The position numbers and the translations under genes are program-made. The notes below the pieces were generated by a model that was given only the letters and a program-made list of their open reading frames with translations, had not been told where the DNA came from and searched no databases. Positions 3,012 to 51,355 of a DNA stretch of 64,000 nt are shown one piece after another. The stretch comes from a virus. Every line of letters starts with the position of its first letter. Position 1 is the first letter of the stretch. The stretch is from the UHGV virus genome UHGV-0036582; one strand, given 5' to 3'.

Positions 3012-3614
3012 TCAAAAAGGCAAAATTCGTTCAACCCAATCGAACAAAACAACTATTTTTCTACCGTTCTCGACACGTAGTGTAACCTGACAAGCATCTG
3101 CGCCTGCTGACACCCCCTCAATTTCACGGCCATCCGCCATGTACACCCTTATAGATTTGTTTGCTTTGTAGGCTTGGTTGCAAATTGCAAAAAAATCGCG
3201 GCGTGATGGCCGATTATCGACATAATCAGGGTGAACTGTTAGTCGACCTTTGAAATCGTGAGCGATACTGTCAACCACACCTGATTCAATTGTACTAATG
3301 CGTTCAAGTGGGAGCCTTATACGATTTTCTTTGTCAAAAGGGGCTGGGCAAAGGTCAACTTTGTTACGAGATGGCATGAGGCCATAAACGTACATGCAAA
3401 ACGCCTGGCCATCTTCGAGAGTGACCCTTACAGGAATTTGTTCTCTGCGCCAGAACATCAGTAGTTTTTCAACGTTAGTGTAATCTCGCGGCCAGAGTTC
3501 AGCTTGGATACCGTAGGTAATATCTTTGGTTGTCATGTCATCACAGAGTTGTTGGCAGAATGTCGATGTCACCAGAATTGCTGGTGAACACCCTGAACGC
3601 TTTTGTGTCTCCAT
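3012..3614 (-). CDS. hypothetical protein (start probably internal Met at 3536)
   Basis: ORF overlaps downstream end of lipoprotein gene; in-frame MTTKD start at 3536 avoids the overlap. Confidence 0.45.
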   Translation of the reverse strand: METQKRSGCSPAILVTSTFCQQLCDDMTTKDITYGIQAELWPRDYTNVEKLLMFWRREQIPVRVTLEDGQAFCMYVYGLMPSRNKVDLCPAPFDKENRIRLPLERISTIESGVVDSIAHDFKGRLTVHPDYVDNRPSRRDFFAICNQAYKANKSIRVYMADGREIEGVSAGADACQVTLRVENGRKIVVLFDWVERILPF

Positions 3615-4312: not shown

Positions 4313-5872
4313 CTAATCTCGTTTCAGAACTCCAAAATCGAATGCTCCATCAATAGGCAATACACCTTCTGCAAAGCCAGGTGTGGTGTCGATGATGTGT
4401 TTTCGCTCATAAGAGTGAGACAACAGGTATTTGTTGCTAATGTCAATGAAATCAGTGATAAAACACACGTTTGCCTGATTTTTTTTGGCTCGTAAGCCAC
4501 GACCGACACGCTGCCTCATTTCAACTTCTGCTTTCCCACCACCAGCAAGAATGACCGCACCAACGCTTGGCACATCAACACCGACATCCAGAATAGTCGA
4601 GCCTATTAAAACATCTATTTCTCCAGACGCTAAACTGTTCAGCTTTGCTTGCCTTGTCGCCTGGTTAGATTCCCCATAGATGAAGTCAACTCTAAGGCCG
4701 GACTCTTTCATCATTTCCATCAGGATTTGCCCGTGGCGTTTAAGACGAACCAGAGTCATACAATTGAGAGAATGTTGCTTATAGAGCAATGCTTCGCGAA
4801 CAATGGCCTCGTTACGTCCCAAATTATACACGATCCCCAACTGATAAGCCTTTTGGTAGGCGGTGCTCATACCAACTCTAAAATTGAGGTGTTTGTTGGC
4901 AAGTTCGGCCTTGATTCTGGCCTCGTCTGGCTTGTAGGCAACTTTATGATAAAGGAAGTACGGCTTTGCCAGAATGCCTCGATCAATCAGGTACTTTTCT
5001 GTGACTTTAATTTCAATTCGCCCGGCCACCGCCATCAGGCGCATGTTGGCTTCCGTCGAATCCTTCATGAACGGCGTGGCTGTAAGCGCCAGACGATAGT
5101 CTGCGTTCACACATAATCTGGCGATGTCATAGAAATTTGAGCCTGAAGACTCATGCGCCTCTTCCAGAATAAGAAGAGAGACACTTGAAAGGAAGCGTTT
5201 CACCAACTCCCGACGTTTGAGGTGGTAGCTTTTCTTATCTGGTGTTGCATCGCGTGGTGGTTCTTCGAGGAAACTTGCAAGAGTTTGAACTGTAGCGACG
5301 TTGATATGTCGTGATACCTGGAACTCACCCGAGCCAATGACTCCAACCTTTTGGTCTTTTAACCACGGTTCGCCATTTTCGGCGCGGTAGTCGATGGATC
5401 TCTGGAAGTTTTCGGCCATTTGAAACATCAGAACAGAGCGGGTTGTTAAAAATAATGTCATTCGACCGATACGTGCAGCTGCTTTGCAGGCAACGTTAGA
5501 TTTCCCGCCACCAGTAGCGATCTGCGCAATCATCATTCCCTCTCGAACCAGTGTTTCCACAGTCTGATCCTGATACGCATAATCAGGATTGTATGGGAAT
5601 GGGTTAACCGCAGGATTTGGTTTACCAAGCGCCGGGGCTTTGTCTTTGCGGATATGAACACATTTGATGCCCGCCTTGTTCAAGTTCGCCGCTACAGGCT
5701 TGGCAAAGCCAGCAGGGAACGAGTTTTTACTCCAGTTGAACATCGTGCTTGTGCCCTTCCAGTCGCCAGTCTCGACTTCGTAGCTCAACATCTGTTGCAC
5801 CATTTGCTTTACCTTGTCATCTGCGCCAGAAATAAGCGCATTAACTGCGTTAGATACAATCCGAACAGTCAT
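4313..5872 (-). CDS. superfamily-2 DEAH-box DNA/RNA helicase
   Basis: Motif I ATGGGKS, motif II LILEEAHE (DEAH-type), motif III TATP, motif VI QRVGRGLR. Confidence 0.75.
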   Translation of the reverse strand: MTVRIVSNAVNALISGADDKVKQMVQQMLSYEVETGDWKGTSTMFNWSKNSFPAGFAKPVAANLNKAGIKCVHIRKDKAPALGKPNPAVNPFPYNPDYAYQDQTVETLVREGMMIAQIATGGGKSNVACKAAARIGRMTLFLTTRSVLMFQMAENFQRSIDYRAENGEPWLKDQKVGVIGSGEFQVSRHINVATVQTLASFLEEPPRDATPDKKSYHLKRRELVKRFLSSVSLLILEEAHESSGSNFYDIARLCVNADYRLALTATPFMKDSTEANMRLMAVAGRIEIKVTEKYLIDRGILAKPYFLYHKVAYKPDEARIKAELANKHLNFRVGMSTAYQKAYQLGIVYNLGRNEAIVREALLYKQHSLNCMTLVRLKRHGQILMEMMKESGLRVDFIYGESNQATRQAKLNSLASGEIDVLIGSTILDVGVDVPSVGAVILAGGGKAEVEMRQRVGRGLRAKKNQANVCFITDFIDISNKYLLSHSYERKHIIDTTPGFAEGVLPIDGAFDFGVLKRD

Positions 5873-48566: not shown

Positions 48567-48801
48567 AAACATCTCGATAAGTATTTACTTACTTATCTTT
48601 TATGTATAAGATGACTTTGTTTTCGTTGAGACGCGACTGTTTGAACTTAAATACAAGTGCAAACGAAGAAGTCTATCTGGCAGTAGCCTAATAAGCCAAA
48701 CACCAGCGAGGTCAGTTTCCAGCCTCGTTACCGAAATGGGACACACTGAGCGAGTGTGATTGCAGAACGCAGGAGGGAACATTCATGTTCCCTCCGATGA
48801 A

Positions 48802-48880
48802 GTAACAGAATGGGCGGTTGGTATATTTTCAACTCCATATGACTCCCGGATTCTTAGCCACTGACCGCCCATCCTGTTAC
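48802..48880. repeat. long-range inverted repeat (17-bp arms, 45-nt spacer) in tRNA leader
   Basis: GTAACAGAATGGGCGGT vs ACCGCCCATCCTGTTAC (16 of 17 complementary); enclosed by further hairpins (GGAGGGAACAT / ATGTTCCCTCC at 48771-48794). Confidence 0.55.
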
Positions 48881-48956
48881 GTCATTTTGTTCAATTATGT
48901 CGTTTATACTGGGTTAAAAAGCGGCGACGTAGCCCGGCTGGTATGGTTAGCCAGCA

Positions 48957-49079
48957 CACAACGTTGAGGCCATTACATTTTTATCAATTCTAAGGTTCTA
49001 TTCACAGAGATACCGGCGAGCGTTGATATGTAACATGTTGGGCAAACATTCAATCGGAGTAGTGGCCTCAACGTTGTGA
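48957..49079. repeat. long-range inverted repeat (16-bp arms, 91-nt spacer) in tRNA leader
   Basis: CACAACGTTGAGGCCA at 48957-48972 vs GTGGCCTCAACGTTGTG at 49063-49079. Confidence 0.55.
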
Positions 49080-49342
49080 AGACGGGATTGTTGTGTAGGT
49101 TTAACCACTGTTGCCATTGGTGCCTGTTTTCACAACAAATGATTCCATACATCACATTGTATAAATTACAAAGTAGGTGCTGTCCTCAGAAACATCATCT
49201 ACTTAAAGATTTTGCCTTCTATTGAGCGAAGTCGAAAACGTCTGGCACTAACGGAAAGTGCAAGTAGCGGTGCGTTTCCTGGCAGAAACTAACACCGCCG
49301 CGATTGGCACTGTTGAGTAATAAATACTGGCAGTGCTGAATT

Positions 49343-49417
49343 GATGGTGTAGCTCAGCGGTAGAGCAGTTGGCTGTTAACCAACTGGTCGGTGGTTCGAA
49401 TCCACCCACCATCGCCA
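49343..49417 (+). tRNA. tRNA-Asn (anticodon GTT)
   Basis: Cloverleaf folded by hand: acceptor GATGGTG/CACCATC, D-stem GCTC/GAGC, anticodon stem GTTGG/CCAAC with loop CTGTTAA, T-arm GGTGG-TTCGAAT-CCACC, 3' GCCA. Confidence 0.85.
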
Positions 49418-49422
49418 ATTTA

Positions 49423-49509
49423 GGGGAGTTAGTCCGTAGGGGCAGCGGGGTAGACTGTAAATCTACTGTCATTGCGACTCGGGTGGTTCGACTCCATCAC
49501 TCCCCACCA
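49423..49509 (+). tRNA. tRNA-Tyr (anticodon GTA), long variable arm
   Basis: Acceptor GGGGAGT/ACTCCCC, anticodon stem GTAGA/TCTAC with loop CTGTAAA, long variable arm, T-arm GGTGG-TTCGACT-CCATC, 3' ACCA; D-arm pairing irregular. Confidence 0.6.
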
Positions 49510-49513
49510 AATT

Positions 49514-49589
49514 GCCGGTTTAGCTCAGTTGGTAGAGCGCCTGCCTTGTAAGCAGGATGTCAGCGGTTCGAGTCCGCTAACCGGCACCA
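49514..49589 (+). tRNA. tRNA-Thr (anticodon TGT)
   Basis: Acceptor GCCGGTT/AACCGGC, D-stem GCTC/GAGC, anticodon stem CCTGC/GCAGG with loop CTTGTAA, T-arm AGCGG-TTCGAGT-CCGCT, 3' ACCA. Confidence 0.85.
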
Positions 49590-49813
49590 ATACAACGATA
49601 AGATCATTACGGTTAATCGTCGTTCATGTGCACAATGACTGGTCGAAAGGTAGTGATCTTACCGTTGTGGTGGATTCGCAGACTGATGCGATAGCTTTCT
49701 TGGATGTTAGGGAAATGCGGCCGCAAATCTTCCCTTTCGCGAGCGGTGATCGTCCGTAGTCCTAATTGGCTGCACCGTATGCCGGAGATTCAGTACCGGC
49801 CACCACAACGGCC

Positions 49814-49900
49814 GGAGAGTAGGGAGCATGGTGCTCAAGCGGTCTTGAAAACCGTCCCATTGCGCAAGCGATGATGGTTCGATTCCATTACTCTCCGCCA
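49814..49900 (+). tRNA. tRNA-Ser (anticodon TGA), long variable arm
   Basis: Acceptor GGAGAGT/ACTCTCC, D-stem GAGC/GCTC, anticodon loop CTTGAAA, long variable arm, T-loop TTCGATT, 3' GCCA. Confidence 0.7.
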
Positions 49901-49902
49901 GA

Positions 49903-49980
49903 CACAGCGTTGAGCGGTTTGGCCTTTTAATCAACTCGATTAAGACTCCGCTAACATAAACCAGACCGCTCAACGCTGTG
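49903..49980. repeat. 16-bp perfect inverted repeat directly after tRNA-Ser
   Basis: CACAGCGTTGAGCGGT vs ACCGCTCAACGCTGTG with 46-nt spacer; arms resemble those of the 48957/49064 repeat. Confidence 0.6.
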
Positions 49981-50054
49981 ATAGACAATTACGGCAGACG
50001 TTCTTAACCATAGCTTGCTAACATCCTAGCAACACTTTTTTCAGCGCAAAATTC

Positions 50055-50078
50055 AAAGGGGCTTCGGCCCCTTTTTTG
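50055..50078. terminator. bidirectional intrinsic terminator
   Basis: AAA-GGGGC-TTCG-GCCCC-TTTTTT; ends both the tRNA transcript and the convergent minus-strand gene. Confidence 0.85.
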
Positions 50079-50092
50079 TTGAACAGTGCAAT

Positions 50093-51355
50093 TTACTTTG
50101 CATAGTCGCCCAATTTTAATATTTCGCGCTTATATTCATTAACCATGCTACTGGATTCAGTATAAATTCGATTTAAAAGATTATCGTTATCTTTATTTTC
50201 ATTTATCTTAATTAGTGCTAATTTATATTCATAGTCATCAAATGCCACAATTAAATGGTGGCCTGGGATTATATCTTCGTCACTCTTAAAGTATATATCT
50301 TCAAGTATGTAATCTAGTTGATTAGATTTTCTTTTCTCGATGTAATCTTCAGCCATAGCTATTACATCATTCCTGTCATTTAACCTGTTTTTTTCGGAAG
50401 GCACATCTTCGTAATGTTGCACGATTGAACAACCAATAAGGCGTGGGATGTAAACGTCAAAATGAGTAACTCTATCATTCGCGGTTTTAAGTAGTTCCTC
50501 AAAGTAGTTTCTTACATGTAAAGGCAACTTCTCAAAGTAATCATTAATTATAGGAGAACAAGGAGTTTTATAATTCATAAGAACCGACGGTACGAGCTTT
50601 GGGTGTCGAAACATCCAGTCCCTTTTAACGTCCGATGGAACATAATAACTTTTAATGATATTATCAAAATAATTTATCATTCGAGATTTGAATATTTTGT
50701 TGAATCTAAGGTTTATGAATGTATCCAGATAAGGCATATTTGAATAAGCATCATCAAAAAATATTTCATCATTGAAAAAATCATATTTATTCAATAAACA
50801 ACACAGTTTTTCCGAATTAATATGTTCACAATAATCGATTTTTAATCCAAAGATAGCAATGATCAACTTCATCTGAGGTGGGATTTTAAAAATTAATTGT
50901 GACACATACGCTCTTTTTTCCTTGAGACATTCCCCATCAATATAAAATGAACCATCCACATACTCAAATATATTAATAATATGCTTCACATACTGTATTA
51001 CCTCATGCTGTCTTACCAATGGATAATATAGTCTATGTAACTCATCGCTGTTTAAATTAATTTTGTGTTTATCGATAATTTGTTTTGCAAGAAGACATAA
51101 CTCATCATGTTGATTTAATAAGGAATCAAACCATTGTTTAAATGCACTCTTTCGCATTTCGAACAATGATTCAGTTGTTAATTGAAGGGCTGAAAAAGCT
51201 GCTTTTGCACTTTTTCTCGCTTCGTAGGCATTCCATGCTGTTGCTATAAAAGCAAATGCTGTAGCCAATGTTCCAACAGTTTGACCATTTAAAACAACCC
51301 AATCCCAAAAAATGACGGTGAGCAGTAGTATAATAATGAAAATTAAAAAAGGCAT
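50093..51355 (-). CDS. AT-rich moron: membrane-anchored protein of unknown function (candidate exclusion/abortive-infection factor)
   Basis: 420 aa; N-terminal hydrophobic segments (FLIFIIILLLTVIFWDWVV, VGTLATAFAFIATAW); hand-counted GC about 20-28 percent in sampled lines versus about 50 percent in structural genes; opposite strand to flanking genes. Confidence 0.6.
   Translation of the reverse strand: MPFLIFIIILLLTVIFWDWVVLNGQTVGTLATAFAFIATAWNAYEARKSAKAAFSALQLTTESLFEMRKSAFKQWFDSLLNQHDELCLLAKQIIDKHKINLNSDELHRLYYPLVRQHEVIQYVKHIINIFEYVDGSFYIDGECLKEKRAYVSQLIFKIPPQMKLIIAIFGLKIDYCEHINSEKLCCLLNKYDFFNDEIFFDDAYSNMPYLDTFINLRFNKIFKSRMINYFDNIIKSYYVPSDVKRDWMFRHPKLVPSVLMNYKTPCSPIINDYFEKLPLHVRNYFEELLKTANDRVTHFDVYIPRLIGCSIVQHYEDVPSEKNRLNDRNDVIAMAEDYIEKRKSNQLDYILEDIYFKSDEDIIPGHHLIVAFDDYEYKLALIKINENKDNDNLLNRIYTESSSMVNEYKREILKLGDYAK

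Follow-up and report, generated by a model that had tools for sequence, protein, structure and literature searches.

A phage RNA family that resembles the template half of tmRNA and carries a 5′ arm complementary to host tmRNA

Trans-translation, the pathway of the transfer-messenger RNA (tmRNA), serves bacteria as their chief means of ribosome rescue and quality control and is an antibiotic target. Two-piece (circularly permuted) tmRNAs are found in alpha- and betaproteobacteria and in cyanobacteria; a single gene gives rise to both pieces, and the 5′ acceptor strand stays on the coding piece. Some phages carry complete tmRNA genes, for example, mycobacteriophage Bxz1. Other RNAs to be considered here are the trans-acting antisense small RNAs (sRNAs) with 5′-terminal seeds, including phage anti-sRNAs such as AgvB and AsxR of prophages of enterohaemorrhagic Escherichia coli, and the stable RNAs encoded near phage tRNA genes, namely, the T4 species 1 and 2 RNAs, GOLLD and ROOL. 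To our knowledge no virus rewrites trans-translation, and a search of the literature likewise found none. Here we describe an RNA encoded in a stretch of 64,000 nucleotides (nt) of the virus genome UHGV-0036582, hereafter called the window (features lie on the + strand unless stated otherwise). This RNA resembles the template half of a tmRNA but lacks the tRNA-like domain by which a tmRNA is defined.

An earlier reading of the window from its sequence alone (the sequence-only reading) had placed four tRNA genes behind a single structured leader of ~700 nt. Such a single leader cannot be upheld: its first ~155 nt (48619–48773) are a discrete structured RNA with its own promoter, and the locus is a series of RNA genes rather than a leader followed by tRNAs. 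The suggestion that this region encodes stable non-coding RNAs or processing structures went in the right direction, as structured and conserved non-coding sequence does precede the tRNA cluster. The promoter-like motif noted at 48577 is present, but at 48584–48612. As read from the sequence, it is sigma-70-like, with the −35 element TTTACT (48584–48589), a spacer of 17 nt and the −10 element TAAGAT (48607–48612). It matches the consensus at 8 of 12 positions, was not called by a consensus scan and is homologous in position to stronger promoters of relatives (TTGACA-17-TAAGAT in Felixounavirus Sf13, TTGACA-17-TAGATT in pYD38-A and Bas80). The predicted transcript start is at ~48619.

The RNA begins with a seed that is invariant in the alignment, GUUUUCGU (48619–48626). 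Together with the block GCGACU (48633–48638) and a GUUU extension this seed makes up a 5′ antisense arm (48619–48643) that is complementary to nt 81–104 of E. coli tmRNA. The arm is followed by a resume upstream signal, ACAAGU (48653–48658), whose A at position −4 (48655) matches A86 of tmRNA; most relatives have a weak hairpin between seed and resume signal. The tag frame (48659–48694) reads GCA AAC GAA GAA GTC TAT CTG GCA GTA GCC TAA TAA and consists of the codons for ANEEVYLAVA (48659–48688) and two stop codons (UAA UAA, 48689–48694). A helix-5 analogue identified by covariation (48677–48706), formed by CUGG (48677–48680) and CCAG (48703–48706), encloses the stops. Two pseudoknots come next. 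Pseudoknot a (48707–48741) has the stems S1, CGAGG (48707–48711) with CCUCG (48723–48727), and S2, UUCCA (48717–48721) with UGGGA (48737–48741). In pseudoknot b (48742–48770), S1 is formed by CACACU (48742–48747) and AGUGUG (48753–48758) and S2 by GCG (48750–48752) and CGC (48768–48770).

The statistics on this structure were obtained with 37 representatives of less than 93% identity. The helix-5 analogue is paired in 97% of the cells and covaries (CUGG:CCAG, CUGAU:AUCAG, UGGCA:UGCCA). Stem S1 of pseudoknot a occurs in at least seven compensated variants, and S2 is found as CCGA:UCGG, CCAG:CUGG, CCAA:UUGG, CUAG:CUAG and UUCCA:UGGGA. In pseudoknot b, S1 is 97.7% paired with four pairs changed on both sides, and S2 of relatives is considerably extended, with compensatory changes (for example, GACGGGAG:CUCCCGUC, GCCCUGA:UCAGGGC; further variants are GCCC:GGGC, GCCCAC:GUGGGC and UCCCCG:CGGGGA). 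In both pseudoknots the pairing of the loop with downstream sequence thus shows clear covariation. Taken together, the five helices are 89% paired, compared with 37–45% when the partners are slid by 1–3 columns, and changes on both sides were observed in 15 of the 23 base pairs. The covariation score is 0.38 as opposed to 0.06–0.15 in the slid controls, and none of 500 shuffles reached it. A covariance model derived from the alignment of the representatives gives a single strong match in the window (48651–48781, 91.5 bits, E 1e-16). The RNA family and its structure are almost certainly real. For the seed GUUUUCGU no partner in cis was found that is consistent across the lineages.

The phage RNA shares with tmRNA the resume codon GCA after a conserved A at −4 and an internal tag frame that in most lineages has no start codon. 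Its tag comprises ten codons, starts with AND or ANE, has a small hydrophobic end and is closed by one or more stop codons; in relatives, the ten-codon frames GCA AAC GAx ... TAA resemble the tmRNA tag ANDENYALAA. Also as in tmRNA, the stops are located inside a helix-5-like stem, and H-type pseudoknots follow. The Rfam models align the tag region weakly (beta_tmRNA 14–17 bits at a gathering score of 84, tmRNA_permuted 13–30 at 47, alpha_tmRNA 20 at 50), and our own covariance model weakly matches nt 82–174 of E. coli tmRNA (21.7 bits, E 0.016). In contrast to tmRNA, the phage RNA has neither the tRNA-like domain (acceptor stem, T arm, CCA) nor pseudoknot 1, in place of which there is a hairpin or, in the window type, almost nothing. 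It has two pseudoknots after the tag, whereas E. coli tmRNA has three, and is ~155 nt long as compared to 363 nt. Unlike any tmRNA it possesses an arm antisense to host tmRNA. With ARAGORN, neither a tRNA-like domain nor a tmRNA was detected in the window (64 kb), in seven other loci or in the whole HK620 genome, and in the window and the HK620 genome no tmRNA reached the Rfam gathering scores. As far as can be judged from the sequence, the RNA has everything a tmRNA template needs except the tRNA-like domain, and we infer that it may derive from the coding half of tmRNA. Like the tmRNA genes of phages, it would be a phage-borne element of trans-translation, often near phage tRNA genes. However, those genes are full tmRNA genes detected by ARAGORN, whereas the RNA of the window is not detected and would depend on the tRNA-like domain of the host.

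The family is widespread. A DNA search in distant mode with the leader alone found the SSU5 family and, in addition, ~100 nt in Felixounaviruses, HK620/HK633 and Klebsiella siphoviruses, which were always unannotated. A second search starting from the P7 copy added P1, P7, D6, Vi01-like Ackermannviridae, N4-like Gamaleyaviruses, Cronobacter CS01 and Roufvirus-like and Bas80-like siphoviruses. With the covariance model, 76–129 bits are reached in 18 loci including P1, P7, D6, SSU5, HK620, Felix-like, Vi01, N4-like, Carvaje, CS01, Bas80 and KpV2811. A copy is present in 756 of 5426 complete E. coli genomes (14%), mostly on phage-plasmids, and none of these copies is annotated. Rfam gave no match to the RNA family at its thresholds, and in the literature outside subscription-only papers no description of the RNA was found, searches for the exact tag peptides included. 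The RNA family is unannotated and fits no Rfam family. A search of bacterial contigs with the pattern GCAAACGANNANNNNTNNCTGGC was discarded because the pattern is too loose; it returned only chance matches or protein genes, for example, SurE-like ANDDGYLAPG.

One copy is carried by plasmid pMT1 of Yersinia pestis KIM10+ (locus 1543–1702; tag ANEDTYLAVA, 90.9 bits). It is separated by ~300 nt from caf1R, which belongs to the F1 capsule operon, and in pMT1 this operon appears to have taken the place of the hairpins and tRNAs downstream. Two Y. pestis sRNAs were considered as expression of this copy and dismissed: sR082 lies near the phospholipase D gene in a region without a model match, and sR083 is assigned to different pMT1 coordinates. 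In P1, P7 and D6 the copy is found in the leader of the ban operon, just after the P1 “dicF-like region”. In P1 (locus 1409–1510) this annotated region has a terminator hairpin immediately 5′ of the tmRNA-like RNA. P7 and D6 (loci 3247–3386) have in addition, 3′ of tRNA-Ser, an STnc100 match below threshold (43 and 39.6 bits versus 47). The families GOLLD, ROOL, DicF and STnc have no match in the window.

It could be argued that the element is an ordinary leader or spacer of a tRNA precursor or else a small open reading frame (ORF), namely, a frame of 29 codons that starts with ATG at 48603 and ends in the tag. The RNA is indeed located upstream of the tRNAs in the window, in P1 and in Carvaje and inside the tRNA arrays of Felix-like phages, the long hairpins of the locus (see below) resemble processing sites, and the window subtype has upstream in-frame TTG and ATG codons. 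However, the RNA also occurs where tRNA genes are missing. In HK620 it is found in the late-leader region between pR′/qut and the tQ terminator, and there is no tRNA gene in the whole HK620 genome; none was called either in the 2.5–13.5-kb loci of CS01, Vi01, KpV2811 and three metagenomic contigs. The element is thus an RNA gene in its own right rather than the leader of a tRNA operon. Several lineages provide it with its own promoter, for example, Sf13, where the RNA occupies a ~250-nt gap between tRNA-Ile and tRNA-Arg and has a TTGACA-17-TAAGAT promoter. As for the small ORF, the upstream ATGs of the window subtype lie within or before the promoter, and the one at 48603 is situated in the promoter spacer; it precedes the −10 element and hence the predicted start. 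In most lineages a stop is found in frame 6–21 codons upstream, and no ATG, GTG or TTG intervenes before GCA, so that conventional initiation is excluded there. We regard a leader or a small ORF as very improbable.

The tag frame, as judged from its substitutions, varies as coding sequence does. In all 41 distinct nucleotide versions the stop, for which TAA, TAG and TGA are all used, comes after precisely ten sense codons. Codon 10 is GCN with all four third bases, and codon 5 is the most variable position. Work by Flynn et al. from 2001 reportedly found that the residue of the E. coli tag at this position and the preceding one are dispensable for SspB binding. Synonymous variation dominates, and several tags exist in three to six purely synonymous versions, CUG/UUG exchanges included. 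The +1 frame (ATG/GTG CAA ACG...) was considered as a coding frame and rejected, as its start is not conserved and stops close it in 40 of the 41 versions. Two classes of tags can be distinguished, AN[DE][DEN]x[YF]LAVA and AND[DN]..[ML][MAVI]AA. The LAVA class presumably keeps the SspB-type N-terminal motif and alters the ClpX-binding end, and the class ending in MAA or AAA presumably does the reverse; a tag ending in LVA is known to remain a degron. In front of the frame the A at −4 is invariant in all 37 representatives, and position −5 is U or C. In E. coli tmRNA the corresponding A86 is the main determinant of frame choice and the change U85C is tolerated, the −1 triplet is of little weight, and other sequences may take the place of the pseudoknots and of the tag (PMC2481249).

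The second conserved feature is the antisense arm. The seed GUUUUCGU is the exact complement of nt 97–104 of E. coli tmRNA, which correspond to tag codons 3–5 (ssrA was taken from a RefSeq genome). Using RNA duplexfold, the arm of the window forms with E. coli ssrA a duplex of 20 base pairs (bp) at tmRNA 81–105 with −26.3 kcal/mol. When the first 32 nt or fewer of each representative are taken as the arm, the best arm:ssrA duplex has 20–30 bp, starts at nt 63–81 and ends at nt 104/105 in 37 of 37 cases. The paired tmRNA segment (nt 63–104) comprises A86, the resume codon and codons 1–5. The mean duplex energy is −30.1 kcal/mol, compared with −14.7 for the downstream region of the RNA itself and −21.4 elsewhere in tmRNA. 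Three blocks contribute to the duplex. Block 1 is the seed, GUUUUCGU with ACGAAAAC (nt 97–104), and GUUUUCG is present in 132 of 134 members from a scan that did not require the seed. Block 2 pairs GCGACU with AGUCGC (nt 86–91, from A86 to the second base of the resume codon). In block 3 there is pairing either of UUUGCGG(C)UUUUU with nt 69–82, which belong to the 3′ strand and loop of pseudoknot 1, or of (A/G)UUUUU with the A-rich linker. The registers of complementarity differ between the lineages. In block 2 the variants GCGGCU, GCGAUU, GUGAUU, GUGGCU and GUGGUU all remain 6/6 paired to AGUCGC by G:U wobble, and just 3 of the 18 possible single substitutions would keep the pairing.

We consider it likely, given this pattern of complementarity, that the arm pairs with host tmRNA. 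Compared with shuffled tmRNA, the arms of the HK620, N4, CS01 and Bas80 types reach z-scores of −3 to −6, the Felix- and Vi01-type arms about −1. The resume region of the phage RNA, AUAAAU|GCA (ACAAGU|GCA in the window), differs from AUAGUC|GCA of the host exactly where block 2 reads, and the arm should therefore prefer the host. A conserved accessible seed and variation that preserves pairing, as expected for a base-pairing sRNA, are found in silico. In this respect the RNA is comparable to the anti-sRNAs, whose 5′ seed is likewise short, invariant and accessible and lies close to the start of the transcript or directly at it, and which also target a non-coding RNA of the host. Different from them, the target would be tmRNA, the pairing extends over 20–30 bp in three blocks, and a tag frame and pseudoknots are present.

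The features of the RNA might give a hint how it acts. In tmRNA the segment between pseudoknot 1 and helix 5 is single-stranded, and SmpB and the ribosome set the frame there. Our proposal, to which we assign a probability of roughly 0.5, is that the phage RNA, by docking on host tmRNA, would block the tag template of the latter or replace it. The arm would dock on the single-stranded resume region and would mask A86, the resume codon and codons 1–5; the minimum effect would be a block of host tagging. As the pairing is antiparallel, the phage strand would leave the duplex at the pseudoknot-1 end, and after a short hairpin the A(−4) and GCA of the phage would be placed within a few nt of the position of those of the host. 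This arrangement suggests a template swap, in which the phage tag template would be used in place of that of the host. Alanyl-tmRNA–SmpB would still rescue stalled ribosomes but would append AAN[DE]xx[YF]LAVA or AANDD..[MA]AA and not the host degron; in case of the window AANEEVYLAVA would be added instead of AANDENYALAA. The two RNAs would then form a hybrid two-piece tmRNA, to which the host contributes the alanine-charged tRNA-like domain and SmpB and the phage the template. This hybrid model would explain the antisense and the coding features together. We put the swap forward tentatively, with the odds somewhat against it. With regard to a role of tmRNA for phages, a hybrid lambda-immP22 phage requires tmRNA for plaque formation (PMC2481249).

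Several points weigh against this proposal. All support for it is in silico: the family, its structure, its complementarity to tmRNA, the coding-type variation of the tag and the lack of start codons and of any tRNA-like domain were computed, and from these we infer docking in vivo, the template swap and a benefit to the phage. We know of no precedent for a ribosome that resumes on a template merely base-paired to tmRNA. The window/SSU5-type arm has a z-score of only about −2.0, and 4 of 100 shuffles are as good; for the window, energy alone is therefore not decisive, but the family-level pattern is. Within block 2 a single mismatch occurs in the Felix type (GCGUCU), and a pair is also lost in some uncertain cases. 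U-rich arms pair readily with the A-rich linker of tmRNA in any case. In addition, the hosts are all Enterobacterales, and their tmRNA segment is, as far as is known, the same. Salmonella tmRNA presumably differs at one seed position, and yet Salmonella phages keep GUUUUCGU. The upstream in-frame TTG and ATG codons of the window subtype belong here as well. Finally, the arm:tmRNA duplex of 20–30 bp could be a target of RNase III instead.

This last point leads to a purely antisense function, in which the arm would shut down or destroy tmRNA by steric block or by RNase III/E cleavage and the tag frame would never be translated. Such a function draws on the same complementarity, requires no unprecedented ribosome step, and the duplex of some lineages (28–30 bp) is long enough for RNase III. 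Nevertheless, it leaves unexplained why ten codons and a stop are constant in 41 versions with mostly synonymous variation and interchange of stop codons, and why the A(−4)/GCA signal is invariant and the scaffold of helix 5 and pseudoknots is conserved. We therefore consider antisense action alone unlikely. Another explanation starts from this scaffold: the RNA might be a decoy that mimics the message and pseudoknot part of tmRNA and titrates S1, SmpB, RNase R or Hfq. The tmRNA-like scaffold and the A-rich upstream tract would suit a decoy, which needs, however, neither tag conservation at the amino acid level nor arm variants that preserve the pairing with tmRNA; we give it a slim chance.

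A further alternative involves the sequences downstream of the RNA. The 224-nt gap between tRNA-Thr and tRNA-Ser, which had been called non-coding, is a conserved module as well (49587–49811, delimited by repeats, folding and homology); the mechanical ORFs of 93–95 amino acids that overlap this gap also overlap tRNA genes. The module starts with a long hairpin (49587–49673), which is followed by a cloverleaf-like body (49662–49811, here called module 2) closed by CCGUUGUGGUGG/CCACCACAACGG, a stem of 9–12 bp. Three stems of module 2 are conserved, namely, the closing stem GUUGUGGUG/CACCACAAC, a hairpin beside its 5′ strand and a hairpin abutting its 3′ strand. These are invariant, whereas the centre is hypervariable. 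Homology of the spacer extends to the late leader of HK620 (its 3′ part) and to Carvaje, Bas80 and pYD38-A, and P7 and D6 share it. Module 2 precedes the atypical tRNA-Ser (see below) in the window, P7, D6 and Carvaje, and copies were located at 2707–2810 of the Carvaje locus and at ~2715–2830 and 1437–1566 of the loci of other relatives. The motif CUGAUGA in module 2 of some phages was considered as a hammerhead ribozyme and rejected, as the window has CUGAUGC and there is no Rfam match.

Module 2 could be regarded as the acceptor half of a two-piece tmRNA that is entirely phage-encoded and independent of the host, with module 2 (49662–49811) or an adjacent tRNA serving as the separate acceptor RNA. 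In favor of this, the layout of module 2 is tRNA-like, with its closing stem and the hairpins beside both strands, it directly follows the tmRNA-like RNA in HK620, Bas80, pYD38-A, KpV2811 and Carvaje, and the permuted-tmRNA model of Rfam aligns tRNA-Ile of Sf13 together with the element (29.9 bits). On the contrary, module 2 was not found in the fetched Felix-like, SSU5, Vi01 and CS01 loci. It does not encode CCA, has no G3:U70 pair and no T-loop consensus, and neither ARAGORN nor Rfam sees a tRNA-like domain in it. Moreover, the arm is complementary to host tmRNA and not to module 2. A canonical acceptor piece was not detected, with module 2 as a weak candidate. We consider a phage-encoded acceptor piece distinctly unlikely and prefer docking on host tmRNA.

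The tmRNA-like RNA is followed by the tRNA genes Asn(GTT/GUU) at 49343–49417, Tyr(GTA/GUA) at 49423–49509, Thr(TGT/UGU) at 49514–49589 and an atypical Ser(TGA/UGA) at 49814–49900. ARAGORN calls all four. As a test for tRNAs we used an ARAGORN cloverleaf together with at least 29 bits in Rfam RF00005, and Asn (75.5 bits), Thr (76.5 bits) and Tyr satisfy both; tRNA-Tyr, which had been flagged for confirmation, passes the Rfam tRNA model with 39.7 bits at a gathering score of 29. With tRNA-Ser the Rfam scan was less favorable: its best match is tRNA-Sec with 46.6 bits, below the gathering score of 47. It scores best as tRNA-Sec because its D stem has 5 bp with a 4-nt loop; an acceptor stem of 8 bp, as in tRNA-Sec, is also possible. 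This odd, Sec-like tRNA-Ser recurs in P7, D6, a Klebsiella phage-plasmid and Felixounavirus Sf13, and for the copy of phage D6 the annotation notes that tRNAscan-SE does not call it. The trio Asn-Tyr-Thr is also annotated in a P1-like phage. In Cyrano (locus 4797–5044) the tRNAs Asn, Thr and Ser are adjacent, without tRNA-Tyr and without the 224-nt spacer, and both are thus insertion/deletion modules. A coding sequence annotated there, CYRAN_40, on the opposite strand over tRNA-Thr and tRNA-Ser, is probably spurious. The four tRNAs would supplement those of the host.

A third component of the locus are long hairpins (z-scores were computed against dinucleotide shuffles). The three long-range inverted repeats described before are real and somewhat longer than claimed (20–22 nt, 91–95%), and the arm CACARCGTTGAG is indeed common to two of them. 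Directly 3′ of the tmRNA-like RNA, an inverted-repeat search found a perfect 11-bp hairpin, GGAGGGAACAU/AUGUUCCCUCC (48772–48795), the loop of which differs among near-identical relatives. It is followed by a long hairpin (48797–48885, z −5.1) with the conserved base UAACAG...CUGUUACGUC, a variable interior of 45 nt and arms at 48797–48818 and 48864–48885 (22 nt, 91%); in SSU5, Klebsiella plasmids, P7 and D6, too, this stem comes after the tmRNA-like RNA. The hairpin CACAACGUUGAGGCC.../...GGCCUCAACGUUGUG (48957–49078, z −6.7) has its arms at 48957–48976 and 49059–49078 (20 nt, 95%) and overlaps a second stem, GUUGUGAAGACGGG/CCUGUUUUCACAAC (49073–49136, arms 49073–49086 and 49123–49136, z −3.3). 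Directly after tRNA-Ser there is a 20-bp hairpin, CACAGCGUUGAGCGG.../...CCGCUCAACGCUGUG (49903–49980, arms 49903–49922 and 49961–49980, 95%, z −9.9). Additional repeats that had escaped the sequence-only reading are 49587–49610/49650–49673, 49662–49673/49800–49811 and 49073–49086/49123–49136; folding z-scores of three additional hairpins are −4.8, −3.3 and −2.4. The hairpins are considerably more stable than their shuffles, and the stems are conserved, with compensatory changes in SSU5 and Klebsiella phage-plasmids, those at 48957–49136 included.

Each long hairpin starts immediately 3′ of an RNA gene. The junction after pseudoknot b is ...GGGC|ACACAACAGG in many phages (GUAACAG in the window), the one after tRNA-Thr ...CCA|AUACAACG and the one after tRNA-Ser ...CCA|GACACAGCG. 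The long hairpins have the common base motif ACA(A/G)C(A/G)...(C/U)G(U/C)UGU, stems of 20–24 bp and variable interiors. Near-perfect stems of at least ~20 bp between mature RNAs, as expected for RNase III-type processing, are found after the tmRNA-like RNA, tRNA-Thr and tRNA-Ser. We suggest that the long hairpins are probably boundary or processing modules (RNase III/E type) of a multi-RNA precursor. A triplet of strands, ACAACG ... CGUUGUG(G) ... (C)CACAACG, was found twice, at 48957–49136 and at 49587–49811. As its middle strand pairs with either outer strand, the two structures are mutually exclusive. Such triplets could represent a folding switch or shared boundaries for the recombination of RNA modules.

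With respect to known RNAs, the locus recalls T4 species 1 and 2, GOLLD and ROOL, which are structured non-coding RNAs co-located and co-transcribed with phage tRNAs. However, there is no Rfam match to GOLLD or ROOL, and the architecture is specific and appears to be tmRNA-derived. Long terminal stems, variable interiors and the position beside tRNA genes are also features of Y RNAs (YrlA). In Carvaje (~2640–2740) the hairpin after the tmRNA-like RNA holds a perfect T arm, AUGGG-UUCGAGU-CCCAU, in its variable interior, which looks like a tRNA-derived or Y-RNA-like insert. The tRNA arrays of Felixounaviruses (Sf13 locus 1–807) begin after a Ro60-like DUF2828 gene; a DUF2828 homologue, gp130 of Bas63, was reported as a counter-defence gene, and it was suggested that some “tRNAs” are Y RNAs (PMC11482910). 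A Y RNA/Ro60 reading, prompted by this gene and by the Carvaje T arm, was rejected: none of the ten scanned ORFs near the locus has a Ro60/TROVE domain, and YrlA (RF02553) has no match in the window, its sole match being 25.6 bits (gathering score 69) over tRNAs in D6.

On the + strand this SSU5-like phage-plasmid thus has four tRNA genes, at least five long conserved hairpins and an intrinsic terminator found by a terminator scan, an 8-bp G+C stem followed by a T run (50055–50080, stem region 50055–50074), which closes the unit. The window is 98% identical to Escherichia phages CMS-2020a and Cyrano, which are SSU5-like phage-plasmids. The RNA locus is flanked by a DNA-ligase operon on one side and by a divergent ORF of 420 amino acids and an integrase gene on the other. 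The 420-amino-acid ORF (50093–51355, − strand) is A+T-rich and converges on the terminator of the cluster; as it has no Pfam match and lies beside the integrase gene, it may be a cargo or defence gene. The leader had been said to lack ORFs of at least 60 codons, which holds for the + strand only; on the − strand there are two mechanical ORFs of exactly 60 amino acids antisense to the RNA genes (48600–48782 and 48973–49155). Similar antisense ORFs are annotated as hypothetical proteins in public records of relatives (e.g., 1797–1937 of the locus of one relative), and several hypothetical ORFs annotated over the RNA are probably spurious. In SSU5 the name “C-type natriuretic protein” refers to the coding sequence upstream, the end of which abuts the RNA element.

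The RNA family merits an entry in RNA family databases. Among its carriers are intensively studied phages and plasmids, such as P1, P7, Felix O1-like and Vi01-like phages, HK620, plasmids of the SSU5/pHCM2 type and Y. pestis pMT1. If just the antisense part of our proposal is true, we would still be dealing with a viral inhibitor of tmRNA that is widespread. If the template swap is true, this would be the first demonstration of an RNA that employs tmRNA as the carrier of a foreign template, and a template could reach tmRNA by base pairing alone. The phage RNA would then be a natural tool to re-code the ssrA tag, and a hybrid two-piece tmRNA of host and virus would exist in about one seventh of the complete E. 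coli genomes as well as in P1 and other classic phages.

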